From: a virus
Taxonomy: Duplodnaviria > Caudoviricetes
Strand: one strand, 5' to 3'
Virus record (IMG/VR): IMGVR_UViG_3300008954_000051
Location: 1 to 63,520 of that record
Length of the DNA: 63,520 nucleotides
Below the pieces are notes generated by a model that saw only the letters and a program-made list of their open reading frames with translations, was not told the DNA's origin and did not search any database. Shown here one piece after another: positions 58,669 to 63,520 of the stretch. How positions within the stretch are numbered: the stretch's first letter is position 1; every line of letters begins with the position of its first letter. The translations under genes and the position numbers were made by a program.

Positions 58669-59745
58669 ATGGCTAAGATTGTTCTATTGACGGATACGCA
58701 TTTTGGCGCCAGAAATGATTCTGCTATATTCAGAGAGTATTTTTTCAAGTTCTATAATGAATTGTTCTTCCCCTTTCTTGAAGACAATAACATTAAAACT
58801 GTTGTACATTTAGGTGATATTGTAGATCGCCGAAAGTATATTAACTTCAATACCCTAAAATCATTTCGCGATGATTTTGTATTTCGATTAGGTAGGATGG
58901 GAATTGACACCCATATTATTATAGGCAACCATGACTGCCACTATAAGAATACCAATCGTATTAATTCAATGGATACTTTATTTAGCACATTAGACGGTAA
59001 ATATGAACCTTGGATATATTCATCGCCTACTGAAGTTAATATCGACGGTTTGAATATTCTTATGGTTCCTTGGATTAATTCTGAAAATTATGACGAATCT
59101 GTTGATCTCATAAAAACCAGTGCGGCTCCTGTTCTTATGGGGCATCTTGAGATTAAAGGGTTTTTAATGGACCAAAAGATGAGAAACCCTATAGGTTTGA
59201 ACGCATCATTGTTCGATAGATTTGACATGGTTATGTCTGGTCATTTTCATCATAAGTCTGATAATGGAACAATCTTTTATCTTGGTAATCCATATGAAAT
59301 GACATGGATTGATTATAATGATAAACGAGGATTTCATACCTTTGATACTGAAACTAGAGAACTAGAGTTCATTCAAAATCCTTATCGAATGTTTCATAAG
59401 ATTTATTATGATGATACCGATAAGACATTTGAAGAGGTTACGATACAAGAATTCGAGAAATATAAGAACACGAACGTTAAAGTTGTGGTTCAAAATAAAA
59501 CGAACCCTTATTGGTTTGATATTATGTTGGATGGTCTGTATAAAGTGGGGCCGAATGATGTGAAAATTGTAGAAGACTATAGTGAAGTTATTTTAGAGGA
59601 TGAGATGGGTGTTGATCAAGCCGAAGATACTATGAGTATTTTAAACACATACATTGATTCTTTAAACTCTAATACAGATAAGACTAAGTTGAAAAGTTTG
59701 TTTAAAGAGTTGTACCAAGAAGCTAATACCCTTGGAACTGAATAA
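58669..59745 (+). CDS. gp47: Recombination nuclease gp47 (Mre11/SbcD-like)
   Basis: DTHFGAR, HLGD..DRRK, GNHD, GHLE, SGHFH. Confidence 0.96.
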   Translation: MAKIVLLTDTHFGARNDSAIFREYFFKFYNELFFPFLEDNNIKTVVHLGDIVDRRKYINFNTLKSFRDDFVFRLGRMGIDTHIIIGNHDCHYKNTNRINSMDTLFSTLDGKYEPWIYSSPTEVNIDGLNILMVPWINSENYDESVDLIKTSAAPVLMGHLEIKGFLMDQKMRNPIGLNASLFDRFDMVMSGHFHHKSDNGTIFYLGNPYEMTWIDYNDKRGFHTFDTETRELEFIQNPYRMFHKIYYDDTDKTFEEVTIQEFEKYKNTNVKVVVQNKTNPYWFDIMLDGLYKVGPNDVKIVEDYSEVILEDEMGVDQAEDTMSILNTYIDSLNSNTDKTKLKSLFKELYQEANTLGTE

Positions 59746-59753
59746 GGATTAAT

Positions 59754-61472
59754 ATGGCATTGGAATTTCAGAAGGTTCGTTGGAAAAATTTCCTTTCTTC
59801 GGGAAATAATTTTATTGAGATTGAACTAAACAAATCAACCAGAACACTTATTATAGGAAAAAATGGTTCAGGAAAAAGCACACTTCTTGATGCCATTACC
59901 TTTGGTTTGTTTGGAAAGCCGTTTCGCAAGATTAGTAAACCCACGCTGATCAATAGTATTAACGATGGATCGTGTTGCGTTGAAATTGAGTTTTGTATTG
60001 GGAATAAACGGTATCATGTGGAGCGAGGAATTAAACCCAATTTATTTAATATAACAATAAATGGAACTACACTCGACCAGGCGTCTAGTGTAAAAGATGC
60101 ACAGGAATATTTTGAAGAACAAATTTTACACCTCAATTATAAGTCGTTTACCCAGGCTGTTATTTTGGGAAGCGCAACATTTCTTCCTTTTATGCAATTA
60201 ACAGCAGCCCATAGAAGAGAAGTGATTGAAGACTTGTTGGATATTAGAATATTTTCAGGAATGAATTCTATTCTGAAAGAACGCATTAGTGAGGTTAAGT
60301 CTAAAATTTCTGATAATACACACAACATAGAACTAACTGAAGAAAAAATAGAAATTCATAATAATCATCTTAAAAAATTACAGACGAACCACCAGGCAAA
60401 ATTAGAAAAAAATAGAGAAGAGATAAAAGAGTCCCATGAAACTATCGTGGCACATAAATCTGAAATAACAACTCTTTCCAATCAAGTGCAAAATTTAAAT
60501 GTCACAATTACAGATCAAGATAAATTACAAAAATCTAAAAAATCTATAGAGGGGCTGTTGTTTAAAATACAAACAAATGAGTCTAAGATAAAAAAGGAAA
60601 TTGATTTTTATACGGACCACGATGACTGCCCGACTTGTGAACAAAAAATTGATGCAGGATTTAAATCAAAGACTATTGAAAATAAGTCTCTTAAATTAAA
60701 TGAATTAGAACAAGCATTGCTTGATCTTGAGGAAAAGGTTAAAGGAGTAGACAAGAGACTGTCAGAAATTTCTGGTGTGAAAGATCAAATTAACGAATTG
60801 CAAAATTCGATCAATGTGGAAAATAATTCGATTTCTGCTTTGACGCAGTATGTCAAAAAAATACAAGAGGAAAATGAAACCTTACAGGAAACAAAAGGTG
60901 ATCTTAATAAGGAAAAAGAAACCATAAAAACATTGTTGTCCGAAACAAAAGAATTGGAAAAATCACAAGAGGCACTATCGAATACAAAATCATTATATCA
61001 AACGGCTGGTGATCTATTAAAAGATTCAGGAATAAAAACATTAATCATAAAGCAATATATTCCTATCATTAATAAACTAATCAACCAACACTTGGCTGAT
61101 ATGGATTTTTTCGTTCACTTTACTCTAGACGAAAACTTTCAAGAGACAATTAAAAGTAGGCATAGGGATCAGTTTTCGTATTATAATTTTAGTGAAGGTG
61201 AGAAGAAGAGAATTGATCTTGCCCTTCTGTTTACCTGGAGGTCTGTGGCACGACTTAAAAATTCAATCAACACTAATCTTTTGATTTTGGATGAAGTTTT
61301 TGATAGTTCATTAGACATGGATGGTACTGAAGAGTTTATGAAAATTTTATATTCATTAGGTGAAGGACAAAACGTGTTTGTAATTTCCCATAAAACAGAC
61401 ATGCTGCATGATAAATTTGACGCATCGATTAAGTTTGAAAAAGTAAGAGGTTTTAGTCAGGTGGCTGCATGA
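59754..61472 (+). CDS. gp46: Recombination ATPase gp46 (Rad50/SbcC-like)
   Basis: Walker A GKNGSGKS, CPTC zinc hook, FSEGE signature, ILDEVFD, ISH. Confidence 0.97.
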   Translation: MALEFQKVRWKNFLSSGNNFIEIELNKSTRTLIIGKNGSGKSTLLDAITFGLFGKPFRKISKPTLINSINDGSCCVEIEFCIGNKRYHVERGIKPNLFNITINGTTLDQASSVKDAQEYFEEQILHLNYKSFTQAVILGSATFLPFMQLTAAHRREVIEDLLDIRIFSGMNSILKERISEVKSKISDNTHNIELTEEKIEIHNNHLKKLQTNHQAKLEKNREEIKESHETIVAHKSEITTLSNQVQNLNVTITDQDKLQKSKKSIEGLLFKIQTNESKIKKEIDFYTDHDDCPTCEQKIDAGFKSKTIENKSLKLNELEQALLDLEEKVKGVDKRLSEISGVKDQINELQNSINVENNSISALTQYVKKIQEENETLQETKGDLNKEKETIKTLLSETKELEKSQEALSNTKSLYQTAGDLLKDSGIKTLIIKQYIPIINKLINQHLADMDFFVHFTLDENFQETIKSRHRDQFSYYNFSEGEKKRIDLALLFTWRSVARLKNSINTNLLILDEVFDSSLDMDGTEEFMKILYSLGEGQNVFVISHKTDMLHDKFDASIKFEKVRGFSQVAA

Positions 61473-62617
61473 TGGAAGAAAAAAAACCATGGATGAAAGG
61501 TTATGAGTTAGAATACCTTAAAGAAATAGAAACATTTTATTCGTATTATAATACATATGCCATGTCTCCTTTTAATTCATTCAAAAAGAATAATGTAGCA
61601 GAAGGATTGCACGACAAATCATTATACTTTGATGGAGATGTTGCATTTACTAGTAAAATTTCAAAAGCTGCTTCTCCTATTAATATGTACCGTGGTGTAG
61701 TTATTGGGAACAAACAAAAGGGCGACTGTACTATAAAAAACTTAGCATGGAAAGAGGGCTGTCAATCAAAAGCCCTTGCAATTTTAAAAGAACATGAGAT
61801 TGATAAACCATGTTGGCTTTATGTTTGGGGGGAGGATGCGAATTCAAAAGAAGTTGCTTTGAAGGCAGGATTCTCTTGGGTTGGAACAAAAATTACAACC
61901 TTTGCTGAATTATATGGAATTTATTTCAGACCATCATTAACAGATAATGCGTTGTTTGATGTTCCAAGAATACATCCAGACAGGTTGCCTGAAGAGGATT
62001 TTTCTTTAGAAAAACTTTCGTTAGATGATGTGACTCCTTTGATTGAATTTTTATCAGAGCAAATTCAAAATTTGGACTTAGATTTCACGAATCATTATTC
62101 AAACTATAATAAAAATGGTGCATGGTCGGCACTATCGCTTCGTGGTTATACTCCTGATCCTGAATTTATTACCAAACCTATTGAGATGAATAAAAAGTGG
62201 AAAGAAGAACACGCAGACAAAATATTTGAAATGCAGGACACAATACTTAGAATGAATCTGGCTTCAGTCGAACTTATACTAGATTTGATTCCAAGCACAT
62301 TTCATCGAATTAGAATTATGCGACTTGCTCCTGGAGGAGGGGAACTTGAAAGACATACTGATCAAGTTGATCCCGATTCTGGTATTCAAGACGGAAAAAT
62401 TATGCGATTGCACTTTCCAATTATCACCAATGACTCTGTTGTATTTACCACATGGAATGTTGATGGTACTAAAAAAAATGTACATATGAAGGTGGGGGAA
62501 TGTTGGTATATTGATACTCGCAAGCCTCACCAGGCCATAAATACTGGAAAAACAGATCGACTTCATTTGGTTGTTGATGTTGATGCAAATGATGATGTGA
62601 GAGGATTATTATGTTAG
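61469..62617 (+). CDS. GNAT-like domain fused to an Asp/Asn beta-hydroxylase-type 2OG-Fe(II) oxygenase
   Basis: C-terminal RIRIMRLAPGG..ERHTD...RLHFPIITN...GECWYIDTRKPH.A.N....R.HLVVD (HxD...H); N-terminal WLYV..ED..S...A.KAGF.WVG resembles the GNAT C-terminal motif (weaker). Confidence 0.7.
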   Translation: MMEEKKPWMKGYELEYLKEIETFYSYYNTYAMSPFNSFKKNNVAEGLHDKSLYFDGDVAFTSKISKAASPINMYRGVVIGNKQKGDCTIKNLAWKEGCQSKALAILKEHEIDKPCWLYVWGEDANSKEVALKAGFSWVGTKITTFAELYGIYFRPSLTDNALFDVPRIHPDRLPEEDFSLEKLSLDDVTPLIEFLSEQIQNLDLDFTNHYSNYNKNGAWSALSLRGYTPDPEFITKPIEMNKKWKEEHADKIFEMQDTILRMNLASVELILDLIPSTFHRIRIMRLAPGGGELERHTDQVDPDSGIQDGKIMRLHFPIITNDSVVFTTWNVDGTKKNVHMKVGECWYIDTRKPHQAINTGKTDRLHLVVDVDANDDVRGLLC

Positions 62618-63399
62618 ATGGTAATGACGCAGAATACTACCTTCAAATTGTGAAAGATTGGATTGATCCAAATCCTGAGCCAGTTCTTAAAATGCACGAA
62701 GATTATATCGTGCTTCGAGATGACCTTTTAGGTGCCGGGACCAAAGTTCGAGGTGTAGATTATCTAATCGGACATATGCCAGAGTTTAAAGAAACCAAAG
62801 AGTGGGTTTTTGGTAGTTGTCCTGCCACAGGATATGCACAAATTAGTCTACCTGTGGTATGTGGCAAGTATGATAAGAAGGCTGTGCTGTTCATGGCAGA
62901 GCGAAAGCGAGAAAACCTTCATGGCTATCAGATTAAAGGATTGTCGTTGGGGGCAGACTATCGTTGGGTCCCTAATGGAATGTTAAATGTGACACAGAAA
63001 CGCGCCAAAGATTATGTAGCAGAGAATCCAACAGAACGTGCAGTTTTGCCTTTAGGCTTAGAGCATCCATCGGTGATTGGTTCTTTCATTAAAGTTGCCC
63101 GAGCGTTGCCTATTGAACCTAAAGAAGTTTGGACTGTAGGATCTAGCGGAACGCTTAATCGTTCTCTTCAATTGGCTTGGCCTGATGCAGAAATTCATGT
63201 GGTATCTGTTGGACATAATATGAAGGAACGTGAGGTTGGACGTGCTATATATCATAGAAGTGAATTAAAATTTGACAAACCTGTCAAGCCAGAAGACGCG
63301 CCTCCCTTTCCATCAGCGCCCACTTATGACGCCAAGGCATGGAAATTTATACGAGAACACGCATCTTCAGGAGCATTGTTTTGGAATGTAGGAGCGTAA
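62611..63399 (+). CDS. PLP-dependent enzyme, fold type II (ACC deaminase / D-cysteine desulfhydrase-like)
   Basis: LRDDLLGAGTKVR (Schiff-base Lys), VGSSGT phosphate loop, PTYDAKAW, LFWNVG. Confidence 0.8.
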   Translation: MLDGNDAEYYLQIVKDWIDPNPEPVLKMHEDYIVLRDDLLGAGTKVRGVDYLIGHMPEFKETKEWVFGSCPATGYAQISLPVVCGKYDKKAVLFMAERKRENLHGYQIKGLSLGADYRWVPNGMLNVTQKRAKDYVAENPTERAVLPLGLEHPSVIGSFIKVARALPIEPKEVWTVGSSGTLNRSLQLAWPDAEIHVVSVGHNMKEREVGRAIYHRSELKFDKPVKPEDAPPFPSAPTYDAKAWKFIREHASSGALFWNVGA

Positions 63400-63400
63400 T

Positions 63401-63520
63401 GTGAGAAAAGAACAAACAAGAAGACAAGCATTGAAAGAAACAGTTGTAACTCGTTTTGTTGGATTTACAGCCGCCCTTATAACGGCCGAACTATTTGTTT
63501 ATGAGATGTTTGGAGTCACA
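63401..63520 (+). CDS. Small membrane protein, 3' partial (not in the ORF track)
   Basis: AGGAG at 63390-94 then GTG; MRKEQTRRQALKETVVTRFVGFTAALITAELFVYEMFGVT, open to the window end, with one hydrophobic helix. Confidence 0.6.
   Translation, partial: MRKEQTRRQALKETVVTRFVGFTAALITAELFVYEMFGVT

Follow-up and report, generated by a model that had tools for sequence, protein, structure and literature searches.

Two intact, adjacent genes at the 3′ end of the 63,520-nucleotide stretch of ocean-phage DNA analysed here (the window) appear, on balance, to belong to a widespread phage module and to encode enzymes that tailor a side chain built by this module on a nucleobase, most likely in DNA of the phage itself. 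The core of this module is constant and consists of a large protein of about 530 aa that resembles amino-methyltransferases and carries SAM motifs (labelled C1 here), together with a PLP enzyme of the Pseudomonas phage M6 gp52 family. Frequent additions to this core are a PF05118-type 2OG/Fe hydroxylase, which may or may not have a GNAT-like N-terminal domain, and a YunG-like protein. The two proteins of the window, ORF382 (hydroxylase) and ORF262 (PLP enzyme), are placed in a methyltransferase (MTase)-centred module because linkage and fusions to C1 are seen among their relatives and the usual partners of thymidine hypermodification were not found there.

The genes at the 3′ end of the window lie on the plus strand in the order gp46, ORF382, ORF262 and a GTG-started ORF that leaves the window (Table 1). 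As the first-pass annotation had described, these four genes overlap or abut. Specifically, direct reading of the sequence gives a 4-nt overlap (ATGA) between gp46 and ORF382, a 7-nt overlap (ATGTTAG) between ORF382 and ORF262, with GAGAGGA located 5 nt upstream of the ORF262 ATG, and a 1-nt gap (TAA-t-GTG) before the small ORF, with AGGAG located 6 nt upstream of its GTG. The identities given earlier to gp47 and gp46 were also borne out by strong matches to the corresponding PHROG families (Table 1). Gene overlaps of this kind are frequent in phage genomes and are little proof by themselves. The gp46/ORF382 overlap of 4 nt is also present in L003, L004 and L005, the three closest loci with both genes. 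The overlap between ORF382 and ORF262 is not conserved: in just 17 of the 75 hydroxylase-bearing loci is the distance from the end of the hydroxylase to the PLP match 150 nt or less. More broadly, 54 of 132 loci have gp46 no more than 4 kb from the PLP gene, and in many T4-like marine phages the module follows gp46, which serves as a conserved landmark. The site 3′ of gp46 holds cargo genes that vary from locus to locus, and genes for cysH and aspartate carbamoyltransferase occur between or beside the module genes in the close relatives L058 and L003, respectively. The small membrane ORF, previously counted as a member of the cluster, is unrelated neighbouring cargo that lies outside the module. 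Its 40-aa piece within the window scores 22.6 bits against DUF7220 (cut-off 28), and its full-length homologue of 75 aa in L003, which matches these 40 residues exactly, reaches 58.8 bits against the same cut-off. L003 is the only one of 133 related loci with such a homologue, and there the aspartate carbamoyltransferase gene intervenes, so that the small ORF directly follows the PLP gene in the window only.

Table 1. Features at the 3′ end of the window.
Feature	Coordinates	Strand	Evidence or remark
gp47, SbcD-like recombination nuclease subunit	58669..59745	+	phrog_100, E 5.7e-105; Metallophos; context only
gp46, SbcC-like ATPase subunit	59754..61472	+	phrog_77, E 2.8e-172
ORF382, whole (382 aa)	61469-62617	+	ORF list
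ORF382 N-terminal domain, residues 1-165	61469..61963	+	GNAT-like but divergent fold of uncertain activity
ORF382 C-terminal domain, residues ~200-382	62066..62617	+	PF05118-type 2OG/Fe(II) hydroxylase
ORF262 (262 aa), fold-type-II PLP enzyme, M6 gp52 family	62611..63399	+	phrog_7093, E 2.5e-37
Two-helix membrane protein of 75 aa (DUF7220), first 40 codons	63401..63520	+	runs off the window end

The proposed kinship of ORF262 to phage decarboxylases of DNA side chains held up well. ORF262 and M6 gp52 belong to the same protein family, phrog_7093 (E 2.2e-159 for gp52), and BLASTP aligns the two proteins over nearly their full length (residues 33-261 with residues 19-277; 24% identity, E 3e-11), Salmonella phage ViI gp226 being a more distant homologue. 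The alignment pairs K45 of ORF262 (62743-62745) with K36 of gp52, and both proteins share the C-terminal motif PFPxxPxYDxKAWK...FWN(V/I)G. K45 and G180 are invariant across 69 sequences, the latter residue inside a GSSGT stretch that we take to be the PLP phosphate loop. The AF2 model of ORF262 is very confident (pLDDT 96.6) and places 1j0a_A first among Foldseek matches (E 2.1e-11, TMq 0.77), the best solved structural neighbours being the ACC deaminase homologue 1j0a, D-cysteine desulfhydrase and threonine deaminase. Fold-type-II PLP enzymes usually catalyse beta-elimination or beta-replacement and not decarboxylation, which weighs against reading ORF262 as a decarboxylase. According to excerpts of PMC8989533, purified gp52 and ViI gp226 decarboxylate glycine and serine on thymidine in DNA, the aldimine lysine is K36, and the template structure for ViI gp226 was 1j0a, the same ACC-deaminase-like fold-type-II template that ORF262 retrieves. 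From its family and alignment, ORF262 is probably a decarboxylase acting on the amino-acid side chain of a nucleic-acid base.

ORF382 had been annotated as an acyltransferase-hydroxylase fusion, a description that stands firmly for the hydroxylase and weakly for the acyltransferase. By profile and predicted structure, the C-terminal half is an intact PF05118 2OG/Fe hydroxylase: residues 219-372 score 40.6 bits against PF05118 (cut-off 22.6), and the metal triad formed by H296 (62354-62356), D298 (62360-62362) and H354 (62528-62530) is invariant in 43 sequences, among which R364, presumably the 2OG-binding Arg, is nearly invariant (conserved in at least 90%). The ORF382 profile aligns the HxD, H and R positions with those of the L-proline cis-4-hydroxylase 4p7w (E 3.7e-9), the AF2 model (mean pLDDT 93.9) displays a double-stranded beta-helix fold in the hydroxylase, and Foldseek matches include 4p7w, the nucleoside-antibiotic beta-hydroxylase 7v4f and AspH (E 1e-10 to 1e-6). 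PF05118 is present in all homologues of ORF382 among the matches listed (at least 120). While ORF382 resembles AspH, 4p7w and 7v4f in its Pfam match, fold, HxD...H triad and Arg, it differs from them in sequence (about 13-22% identity), in its fused GNAT-like N-domain, and in its location among MTase and PLP genes or its fusion to them. PF05118 members act on proteins, lipid A or free amino acids, and we know of none that acts on nucleic acids. Residues 1-165 may be GNAT-like, at the level of the fold only. The order of secondary structures in the AF2 model fits the GNAT topology, structural look-alikes in the Atlas are viral clusters (TM 0.66-0.70), one with PF00583 in 42% of its members, and two sub-significant PDB profile matches, 1tiq (E 0.043) and 8osp (E 0.072), are both N-acetyltransferases. 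No acetyltransferase Pfam model was matched at E ≤ 5 by any of 10 N-domains of the family. The acetyl-CoA pyrophosphate loop has the motif Q/R-x-x-G-x-G/A and precedes helix 3. A conserved loop of this type was not found in ORF382, the stretch between strand 87-94 and helix 99-108 being variable and gapped in 8 aligned members and reading 'x' in the consensus of 43 sequences.

A hydroxymethylase, a 5hmU kinase and an amino acid:DNA transferase (AADT) had been foreseen as companions of the PLP enzyme, and none of them was found with this PLP clade. Homologues of M6 gp51, gp53, gp54 and gp58 were found neither in the window nor in 135 loci totalling 1.41 Mb, and PF00303, gp51 and gp54 had no match in five relatives of 117-170 kb (52-84% complete), in searches that, except for PF00303, used single-sequence queries, which distant homologues could escape. 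In functional terms, no AADT, 5-hmdU kinase, radical SAM isomerase or ThyA-type hydroxymethylase was found in the 1.41 Mb of loci or in these five relatives, and no dUMP or dCMP hydroxymethylase in the related loci or the same relatives. Since the pathway partners of gp52 were not found, its proven chemistry cannot simply carry over to ORF262, and since the ORF262 clade is partnered with amino-MTase-like proteins instead of a 5-hmdU DNA kinase, AADT and radical SAM isomerase, the base and the side chain probably differ from those of gp52.

The constant partner is C1, which had not been foreseen as a companion and is not encoded in the window. Among the 54 well-flanked loci (at least 3.5 kb on each side of the PLP gene), 53 contain C1 within 4 kb of the PLP gene, and 35 contain both C1 and the hydroxylase. 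When PLP proteins are merged at 90% identity, C1 occurs in 21 of 21 clusters and the hydroxylase in 11 of 21. The MTase motifs YDPSxGWGGR and TSPPYF of C1 are invariant in 19 sequences. C1 matches PF01555 and the phrog_498 DNA methyltransferase; it has no match among solved structures, and its N-terminal region of about 290 aa is unexplained. Gene fusions add to this linkage: of the 30 PLP-domain representatives of at least 400 aa, 17 also bear an amino-MTase domain (14 recognised via the C1 profile; P0304, P0326 and P0372 via PF01555 only), two (P0241 and P0254) unite MTase, hydroxylase and PLP domains in a single chain, and P0247 does so for hydroxylase, YunG-like and PLP domains. Erythrobacter phage R6L gp1 is an N6_N4_Mtase-PALP fusion, and in Microcystis phage Mae-JY30 an MTase gene is directly followed by the PALP gene, the two genes 5′ of the latter being annotated ParB/sulfiredoxin. 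On the hydroxylase side, gp4 of mycobacteriophage LilMcDreamy is a full-length homologue (hhalign 99.9%) whose gene overlaps the end of gp3, a PF18724 amino acid:DNA transferase (47.3 bits), and the gp3-gp4 pair is an independent tie of the hydroxylase to amino acids on DNA. The surroundings of this homologue (ParB-like, a weak Tet_JBP match and AADT) are similar to those of the ParB-dependent T-dioxygenase clusters described in excerpts of PMC13229309.

One could envision RNA (tRNA, rRNA or mRNA ends) or protein as the target of the module instead, with C1 a relative of RNA or protein amino-methyltransferases and the hydroxylase and PLP enzyme tailoring there, a reading that we consider unlikely. 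RNA and protein-glutamine methyltransferases do occur among the amino-MTases with the (D/N/S)PPY/F motif, no DNA-binding domain was recognised in C1, and the nearest chemical precedent known to us is on tRNA, where wybutosine synthesis involves aminocarboxypropyl transfer by the MTase-fold enzyme TYW2, followed by hydroxylation of the derived side chain by the cupin TYW5. However, the Pfam, PHROG and Eco57I models matched by the MTase domains are DNA methylase families, and both the ParB/sulfiredoxin annotations upstream of the Mae-JY30 PALP gene and the position of the LilMcDreamy hydroxylase homologue after an amino acid:DNA transferase gene argue against an RNA or protein substrate. Furthermore, the sole characterised relative of ORF262 acts on DNA, as described in excerpts of PMC8989533.

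A role of ORF382 and ORF262 as auxiliary metabolic genes whose products use free metabolites is very unlikely; ORF262 would then be an ACC deaminase, a D-cysteine desulfhydrase or an enzyme like cysteine synthase, and ORF382 would hydroxylate, and perhaps also acetylate, free amino acids. The solved neighbours of ORF262 would suit such a role, as would the free L-proline substrate of the hydroxylase's best solved neighbour, the cysH (L058) and aspartate carbamoyltransferase (L003) genes adjoining the PLP gene, and the variable cargo of the post-gp46 site across loci. Yet the resemblance of ORF262 to ACC deaminase and D-cysteine desulfhydrase, the alternative left standing by the first-pass annotation, is a likeness of fold only: ORF262 has no match in Pfam or NCBIfam, the AcdS, DcyD and CysK families included, and the profile of its family scores gp52 at 70.2 bits, compared with 26.8 bits for the best solved PLP enzyme, 24.1 bits for 1j0a and 14.8 bits (E 0.13) for DcyD. 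These same results place ORF262 outside AcdS and DcyD by sequence. In addition, near-universal linkage and repeated fusion to amino-MTase domains are without rationale in free amino-acid metabolism.

No C1 was detected by tblastn in the 63.5-kb window; an MTase-like gene is not seen there, as only 121 nt of the contig remain beyond ORF262. A longer contig, of 143.6 kb, encodes an identical ORF262. L003, the closest relative (PLP protein 86% identical), has genes for aspartate carbamoyltransferase and DUF7220 and then a 221-aa ORF between its PLP gene and the contig end, and no C1 was seen in the 1.9 kb 3′ of the PLP gene. Since C1 was found neither in the window nor in this 1.9 kb, the phage may carry an incomplete set. 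The next relatives contain C1 downstream of the PLP gene, past a cysH insert in L058 (79%), directly in L004 (75%) and past one ORF in L005 (73%). There is thus a slim chance that the set is a remnant in this lineage, with loss or displacement of the C1 gene and with ORF382 and ORF262 either in decay or recruited to another substrate, a scenario that accords with the missing C1 in the window and L003 but not with the full length of both ORFs, their complement of every invariant catalytic residue and the C1 genes of L058, L004 and L005, the window and L003 ending too early to decide on C1.

If ORF382 and ORF262 are tailoring enzymes of the C1-centred module, a four-step chemistry can be envisioned. 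C1 would put an alpha-amino-acid-bearing group onto the exocyclic amine of a base, and this group would be 3-amino-3-carboxypropyl, the sole such group offered by SAM. The C-terminal domain of ORF382 would then hydroxylate the side chain, and ORF262 would, like gp52, strip its carboxylate. This would leave a cationic aminoalkyl arm, the amine of which the GNAT-like domain may acylate afterwards. TYW2/TYW5 provide a precedent for an MTase-fold enzyme moving a non-methyl group to a base, in mechanism only and with no sequence kinship claimed; unlike the proposed module, they act on tRNA. Our literature search found no paper in which this aminocarboxypropyl chemistry is proposed for DNA. A second precedent, again limited to mechanism, is CmoX of Synechococcus phage S-B43, a DNA carboxymethyltransferase that, unlike the proposed module, acts at cytosine C5 with carboxy-SAM (PMC12783734). 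The overall logic is similar to that of thymidine hypermodification clusters in general, PaMx11-type tailoring by the acetyltransferase gp48 included, in which, according to excerpts of PMC8989533, an appended amino-acid-like group is sculpted by a decarboxylase, an oxidoreductase and an acetyltransferase. Here, a SAM-motif amino-MTase relative is the likely installer, in place of the kinase and AADT that work on 5-hmdU. Through fusions and gene neighbourhoods, both proteins of the window are linked to predicted nucleic-acid-modifying enzymes, and the module is probably an uncharacterised, MTase-centred system of base hypermodification that builds an undescribed decoration on viral DNA, which would be expected to shield the phage DNA from host nucleases.

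The two genes at the 3' end of the window, ORF382 (a 382-residue protein with a GNAT-like and a hydroxylase part) and ORF262 (a 262-residue PLP enzyme), are in our estimation probably part of a base-hypermodification module, with DNA as its most likely target. This reading is founded on family memberships, intact catalytic residues, near-universal linkage to a third gene, here termed C1, and covalent fusions; the pathway beyond these we infer. The virus record is a single contig of 63,520 bases, all covered by the window, and represents part of the genome of a T4-like marine myovirus. In it UvsW, gp55, gp47 and gp46 come after a long structural module; gp46 is 49% identical to its counterpart in Synechococcus phage S-RIM2. 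Five very large plus-strand ORFs (1701, 1803, 1734, 2207 and 2214 amino acids; window 6255-39720) take up about half of the window.

Genes at the 3' end of the window
Feature	Position	Strand	Basis
gp46	59754-61472	+	ORF call
ORF382	61469-62617	+	ORF call
ORF262	62611-63399	+	ORF call
Small ORF, GTG start, incomplete at window end	63401-63520	+	ORF call

Direct reading of the sequence confirmed the overlapping or abutting junctions described in the first-pass annotation: an ATGA overlap between gp46 and ORF382, an ATGTTAG overlap between ORF382 and ORF262 with GAGAGGA upstream, and TAA-t-GTG between ORF262 and the small ORF with AGGAG upstream. Gene overlaps by themselves say little; the gp46/ORF382 overlap is seen again in three related loci (L003-L005), and that between ORF382 and ORF262 is not conserved across related loci. 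Where ORF382 and ORF262 overlap directly in the window, the two closest relatives having both hydroxylase and PLP genes carry an intervening ORF of ~110-116 residues (L003:7659-7971 and L004:7665-7944). The small membrane ORF had been counted as a member of the set, a proposal rejected on its occurrence across related loci: it is probably a DUF7220 gene, carried as cargo outside the module. A blastn search with the region returned no match among cultured phages. The G+C content is 0.39-0.44 across the PLP gene versus about 0.29-0.36 upstream (window 62250-63499), a possible sign that this gene came from elsewhere or is more strongly constrained.

ORF262 has no match in Pfam or NCBIfam and matches phrog_7093 (E 2.5e-37), a PHROG whose archetype is gp52, the PLP decarboxylase of Pseudomonas phage M6 (E 2.2e-159). 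Pairwise BLASTP aligns it with gp52 over almost its full length (E 3e-11), setting K45 opposite gp52 K36, and a C-terminal PFP..YD.KAWK...FWN motif is common to both proteins. Purified M6 gp52 and ViI gp226 are reported to be PLP proteins that remove the carboxyl group from glycine and serine carried on thymidine in DNA, with gp52 K36 as the predicted aldimine lysine and structure 1j0a as the template for gp226 (PMC8989533). An alignment of 69 family members is invariant at two columns only, K45 and G180. The AF2 model of ORF262 (pLDDT 96.6) has 1j0a as its nearest solved structure (TMq 0.77), and a profile of the ORF262 family scores gp52 at 70.2 bits, versus 26.8 bits for the best solved PLP enzyme and 14.8 bits for D-cysteine desulfhydrase; the scores for solved enzymes came from this family profile, ORF262 as a single-sequence query retrieving nothing from the PDB. 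Because PHROG, BLASTP, lysine, fold and profile scores agree, ORF262 is assigned by homology to the gp52 family and rejected as an AcdS or DcyD orthologue. The ACC deaminase or D-Cys desulfhydrase function that had been kept as an alternative is improbable on the profile scores and the lack of an NCBIfam match, and what ORF262 has in common with ACC deaminase is the fold only. ORF262 shares sequence, lysine and fold with the gp52 family but not its genomic context, in which a kinase accompanies an amino acid:DNA transferase (AADT). A BFVD fold search gave one strong match, an 810-residue protein of 38% identity that, judged from its length alone, is probably the R6L fusion described below; M6 gp52 was not among the matches listed. 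A complex prediction for ORF382 with ORF262 scored 0.00 and, run without controls, weighs neither way on binding.

The hydroxylase half of ORF382 held up well: residues 219-372 match PF05118 above the cut-off (40.6 bits versus 22.6), so that the protein is classed as a member of this family, and its catalytic residues are intact. Specifically, H296, D298 and H354 are invariant and R364 nearly so among 43 sequences, and these residues align with the iron triad and arginine of L-proline cis-4-hydroxylase (4p7w), whose fold, together with those of the nucleoside-antibiotic beta-hydroxylase 7v4f and AspH, is matched by the AF2 model (pLDDT 93.9). The acyltransferase half fared less well. The N-terminal ~165 residues are conserved in the 43-sequence alignment, the order of secondary-structure elements in the model is compatible with GNAT, and Atlas look-alikes of residues 12-165 (TM 0.66-0.70) include a viral cluster, 42% of whose members carry PF00583. 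A profile of eight N-domains placed two N-acetyltransferases at the top of the PDB, at non-significant values (1tiq, E 0.043; 8osp, E 0.072). Topology and look-alikes are compatible with the claim, whereas the sequence-family and cofactor-loop tests fail: acetyltransferase Pfam models were matched by none of ten N-domains at E <= 5, and the acetyl-CoA pyrophosphate loop of GNAT enzymes is not conserved in the N-domain alignments. We call this region a divergent GNAT-like domain, predicted from the model and of uncertain activity. Other hydroxylase clades (428-467 residues) have a different N-terminus, and by tblastn 32 loci have the N-domain as against 75 with the C-domain. The YunG-like c11 protein was rejected as a counterpart of the N-domain, only on separate blastp clusters and dissimilarity by eye.

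Independent evidence on the hydroxylase comes from cultured phages, among which the sole homologue of ORF382 is gp4 of Mycobacterium phage LilMcDreamy (ORF382 residues 76-382 against gp4 56-361; hhalign probability 99.9%). Its gene overlaps the end of gp3, a PF18724 AADT (47.3 bits, cut-off 26.2) that was rejected as a PLP enzyme (hhalign probability 0.1% against the ORF262 family). Upstream of gp3 lie the ParB-like gp1 and then gp2 (gp1-gp4, L137:1-3759); gp2 is annotated as a queuine tRNA-ribosyltransferase, and its only Pfam match is a weak, sub-cut-off one to Tet_JBP (E 0.0022). ParB-dependent phage T-dioxygenases are reported to be consistently linked with P-loop kinases and AADTs (PMC13229309). 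Given this linkage pattern and the content of gp1-gp4, the hydroxylase family also occurs in an apparent thymidine-hypermodification cluster: gp1-gp4 looks, by analogy, like a ParB-dependent T-dioxygenase cluster with an extra tailoring enzyme.

The most constant neighbour of the PLP gene is C1, which encodes a SAM-motif, amino-methyltransferase-like protein of ~530 residues. Across loci encoding ORF262 relatives (53 from IMG/VR and 80 from metagenomes; PLP gene found by tblastn in 132 of 133), 106 have C1 within 4 kb of the PLP gene; at the same distance the counts are 75 for the hydroxylase C-domain, 54 for gp46 and 36 for a YunG-like protein of 154 residues. Restricting the set to loci flanked by 3.5 kb or more on each side leaves 54, of which 53 have C1 (the exception being L111) and 35 have C1 with the hydroxylase. 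These loci are not independent; after clustering of the PLP proteins at 90% identity, C1 occurs in 21/21 clusters and the hydroxylase in 11/21. Three gene orders were found: gp46-hydroxylase-PLP-C1, gp46-PLP-C1 and C1-hydroxylase-YunG-like-PLP. The YDPSxGWGGR and TSPPYF motifs of C1 are invariant, and the protein matches PF01555 N6_N4_Mtase (29.5 bits in L004, 23.6 bits in L020) and the phrog_498 DNA methyltransferase. Its first ~290 residues gave no match in sequence, PDB profile or Atlas searches, and its profile returned only noise from the PDB (E 0.85). C1 has no recognised DNA-binding domain, which is what a module acting on RNA or protein could present; we hold such a target to be unlikely.

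The surroundings of these genes vary. A fourth recurrent module member, which the window lacks, is the YunG-like protein (PF24585, every match sub-cut-off). Its gene separates those of the hydroxylase and the PLP enzyme in many loci (for example L018:7462-7929 and L034:5888-6352), and it is fused to the PLP domain in P0247, P0267, P0276, P0338, P0242 and P0248. A second, shorter methyltransferase-core paralogue, ~29-33% identical to C1 residues ~253-508, occurs upstream of the hydroxylase in L061:6960-7628, L062:7599-8285 and L065:1367-2101, with the full C1 also present downstream of the PLP gene. Close relatives have metabolic genes inserted next to the PLP gene: a cysH-like (PAPS/APS reductase) ORF between PLP and C1 in L058:1733-2567, identified from its translation by eye, and an aspartate carbamoyltransferase gene (PF02729, PF00185) in L003:8753-9736. 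In Erythrobacter phage R6L, too, a PAPS reductase gene is found at a distance of six genes from the methyltransferase-PALP fusion. Either the position after the PLP gene seems prone to insertions, or the presence of the sulfur gene may be more than coincidence.

The same partners are found joined in single chains. Searched in full with HMMER, 1.84 billion representatives yielded 1072 ORF262 relatives at E <= 0.001, and 30 of the 150 listed have at least 400 residues. Profiles built here detected the C1-type methyltransferase core in 14 of these 30 and the hydroxylase in three, and a Pfam scan of 20 of them added three with PF01555 only (P0304, P0326 and P0372). P0241 and P0254 combine methyltransferase, hydroxylase and PLP domains, and P0247 is a hydroxylase-YunG-like-PLP fusion. 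Five others have weak, sub-cut-off YunG-like matches, one has DUF3102, three gave no partner domain and three further ones lay outside the Pfam scan. As the part of the PF01555 model that is matched differs between fusions (positions 1 to about 126, or 176-218), and both domain orders occur, the PLP domain may be fused to more than one kind of amino-methyltransferase. In cultured phages, R6L gp1 is an N6_N4_Mtase-PALP fusion, and the gene directly 5' of the PALP gene in Microcystis phage Mae-JY30 has an N6_N4_Mtase domain.

To our knowledge, thymidine is the only nucleoside of phage DNA for which amino-acid-type hypermodification after replication has been described, by way of 5-hmdU, a kinase and an AADT. 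The first-pass annotation had noted that such partners were missing from the window, and this stands, also beyond it: tblastn at E <= 1e-3 returned nothing for M6 gp51 (AADT), gp53 (radical SAM isomerase), gp54 (5-hmdU kinase) and gp58 (ThyA-like), either from the window or from 135 loci with a combined length of 1.41 Mb, whereas gp52 itself matches 112 of these sources. Nor were PF00303, gp51 or gp54 detected in five larger relatives (117-170 kb, with completeness put at 52-84%), a search that for gp51 and gp54 had no positive control and that distant homologues could escape. The linkage and fusion with methyltransferase and hydroxylase, with no part of the thymidine route found, point to a different entry chemistry and probably to a different target base. 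C1 itself has no match within the 63,520-nt window. In the closest relative, L003 (PLP 86% identical), the order is PLP, aspartate carbamoyltransferase, DUF7220, a 221-residue ORF and the contig end; in the next ones C1 follows the cysH-like insert (L058, 79%), the PLP gene directly (L004, 75%) or one further ORF (L005, 73%). Among 80 metagenome relatives none had a contig near-identical to the window, and another contig, of 143.6 kb, encodes an identical ORF262. That the window holds a remnant set, C1 being missing from the lineage of this phage, seems to us unlikely, with the contig ending 121 nt past ORF262. Auxiliary genes acting on free metabolites, to which only fold neighbours and nearby metabolic genes point, are contradicted by the methyltransferase linkage and fusions and improbable.

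Base hypermodification is the reading we favour: the module probably adds amino-acid-type groups to DNA after replication, as in the known pathways, with another kind of enzyme installing them. A gp52-type enzyme requires a substrate bearing a free alpha-amino acid, and the only alpha-amino-acid group that SAM can donate is, as far as we know, 3-amino-3-carboxypropyl. Since the constant partner is a SAM-motif amino-methyltransferase relative, we propose that the C1-type enzyme would move this group onto an adenine or cytosine of DNA, at the exocyclic amine, that the PF05118 hydroxylase would hydroxylate the side chain, and that ORF262 would decarboxylate it to a cationic amino(hydroxy)propyl arm, N-(3-amino-2-hydroxypropyl), which the GNAT-like domain might then acylate. 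In a variant, the PLP enzyme would first decarboxylate SAM, and the methyltransferase-like enzyme would transfer aminopropyl. The methyltransferase-hydroxylase-PLP order of P0241 and P0254 fits the proposed sequence and is no proof of it. Non-methyl transfer by a methyltransferase-fold enzyme has a precedent in TYW2, which acts with the hydroxylase TYW5. CmoX is reported as another (PMC12783734). A new class of DNA hypermodification built on SAM-derived aminocarboxypropyl chemistry, with SAM and not 5-hydroxymethylpyrimidines as its starting point, in abundant marine T4-like and other phages, is a tentative proposal whose specifics we regard as doubtful.

The literature yielded no pathway combining a methyltransferase, a gp52-like PLP enzyme and a PF05118 hydroxylase, and no description of an aminocarboxypropyl DNA base; such contigs may be included in the supplementary gene-cluster tables that accompany PMC8989533 and PMC13229309. 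ORF262 has 1817 relatives at E <= 0.001 (1072 representatives at 50% identity), and the phages that carry them are very common in the ocean. Cultured carriers exist (R6L and Mae-JY30, with LilMcDreamy for the hydroxylase), and the question is therefore directly testable. Should the specific chemistry hold, an aminocarboxypropyl or aminopropyl base would be known from natural DNA for the first time. Confirmation of the module would extend both the range of natural DNA bases and the set of enzymes for labelling DNA, and would help to explain the resistance of marine phages to restriction.
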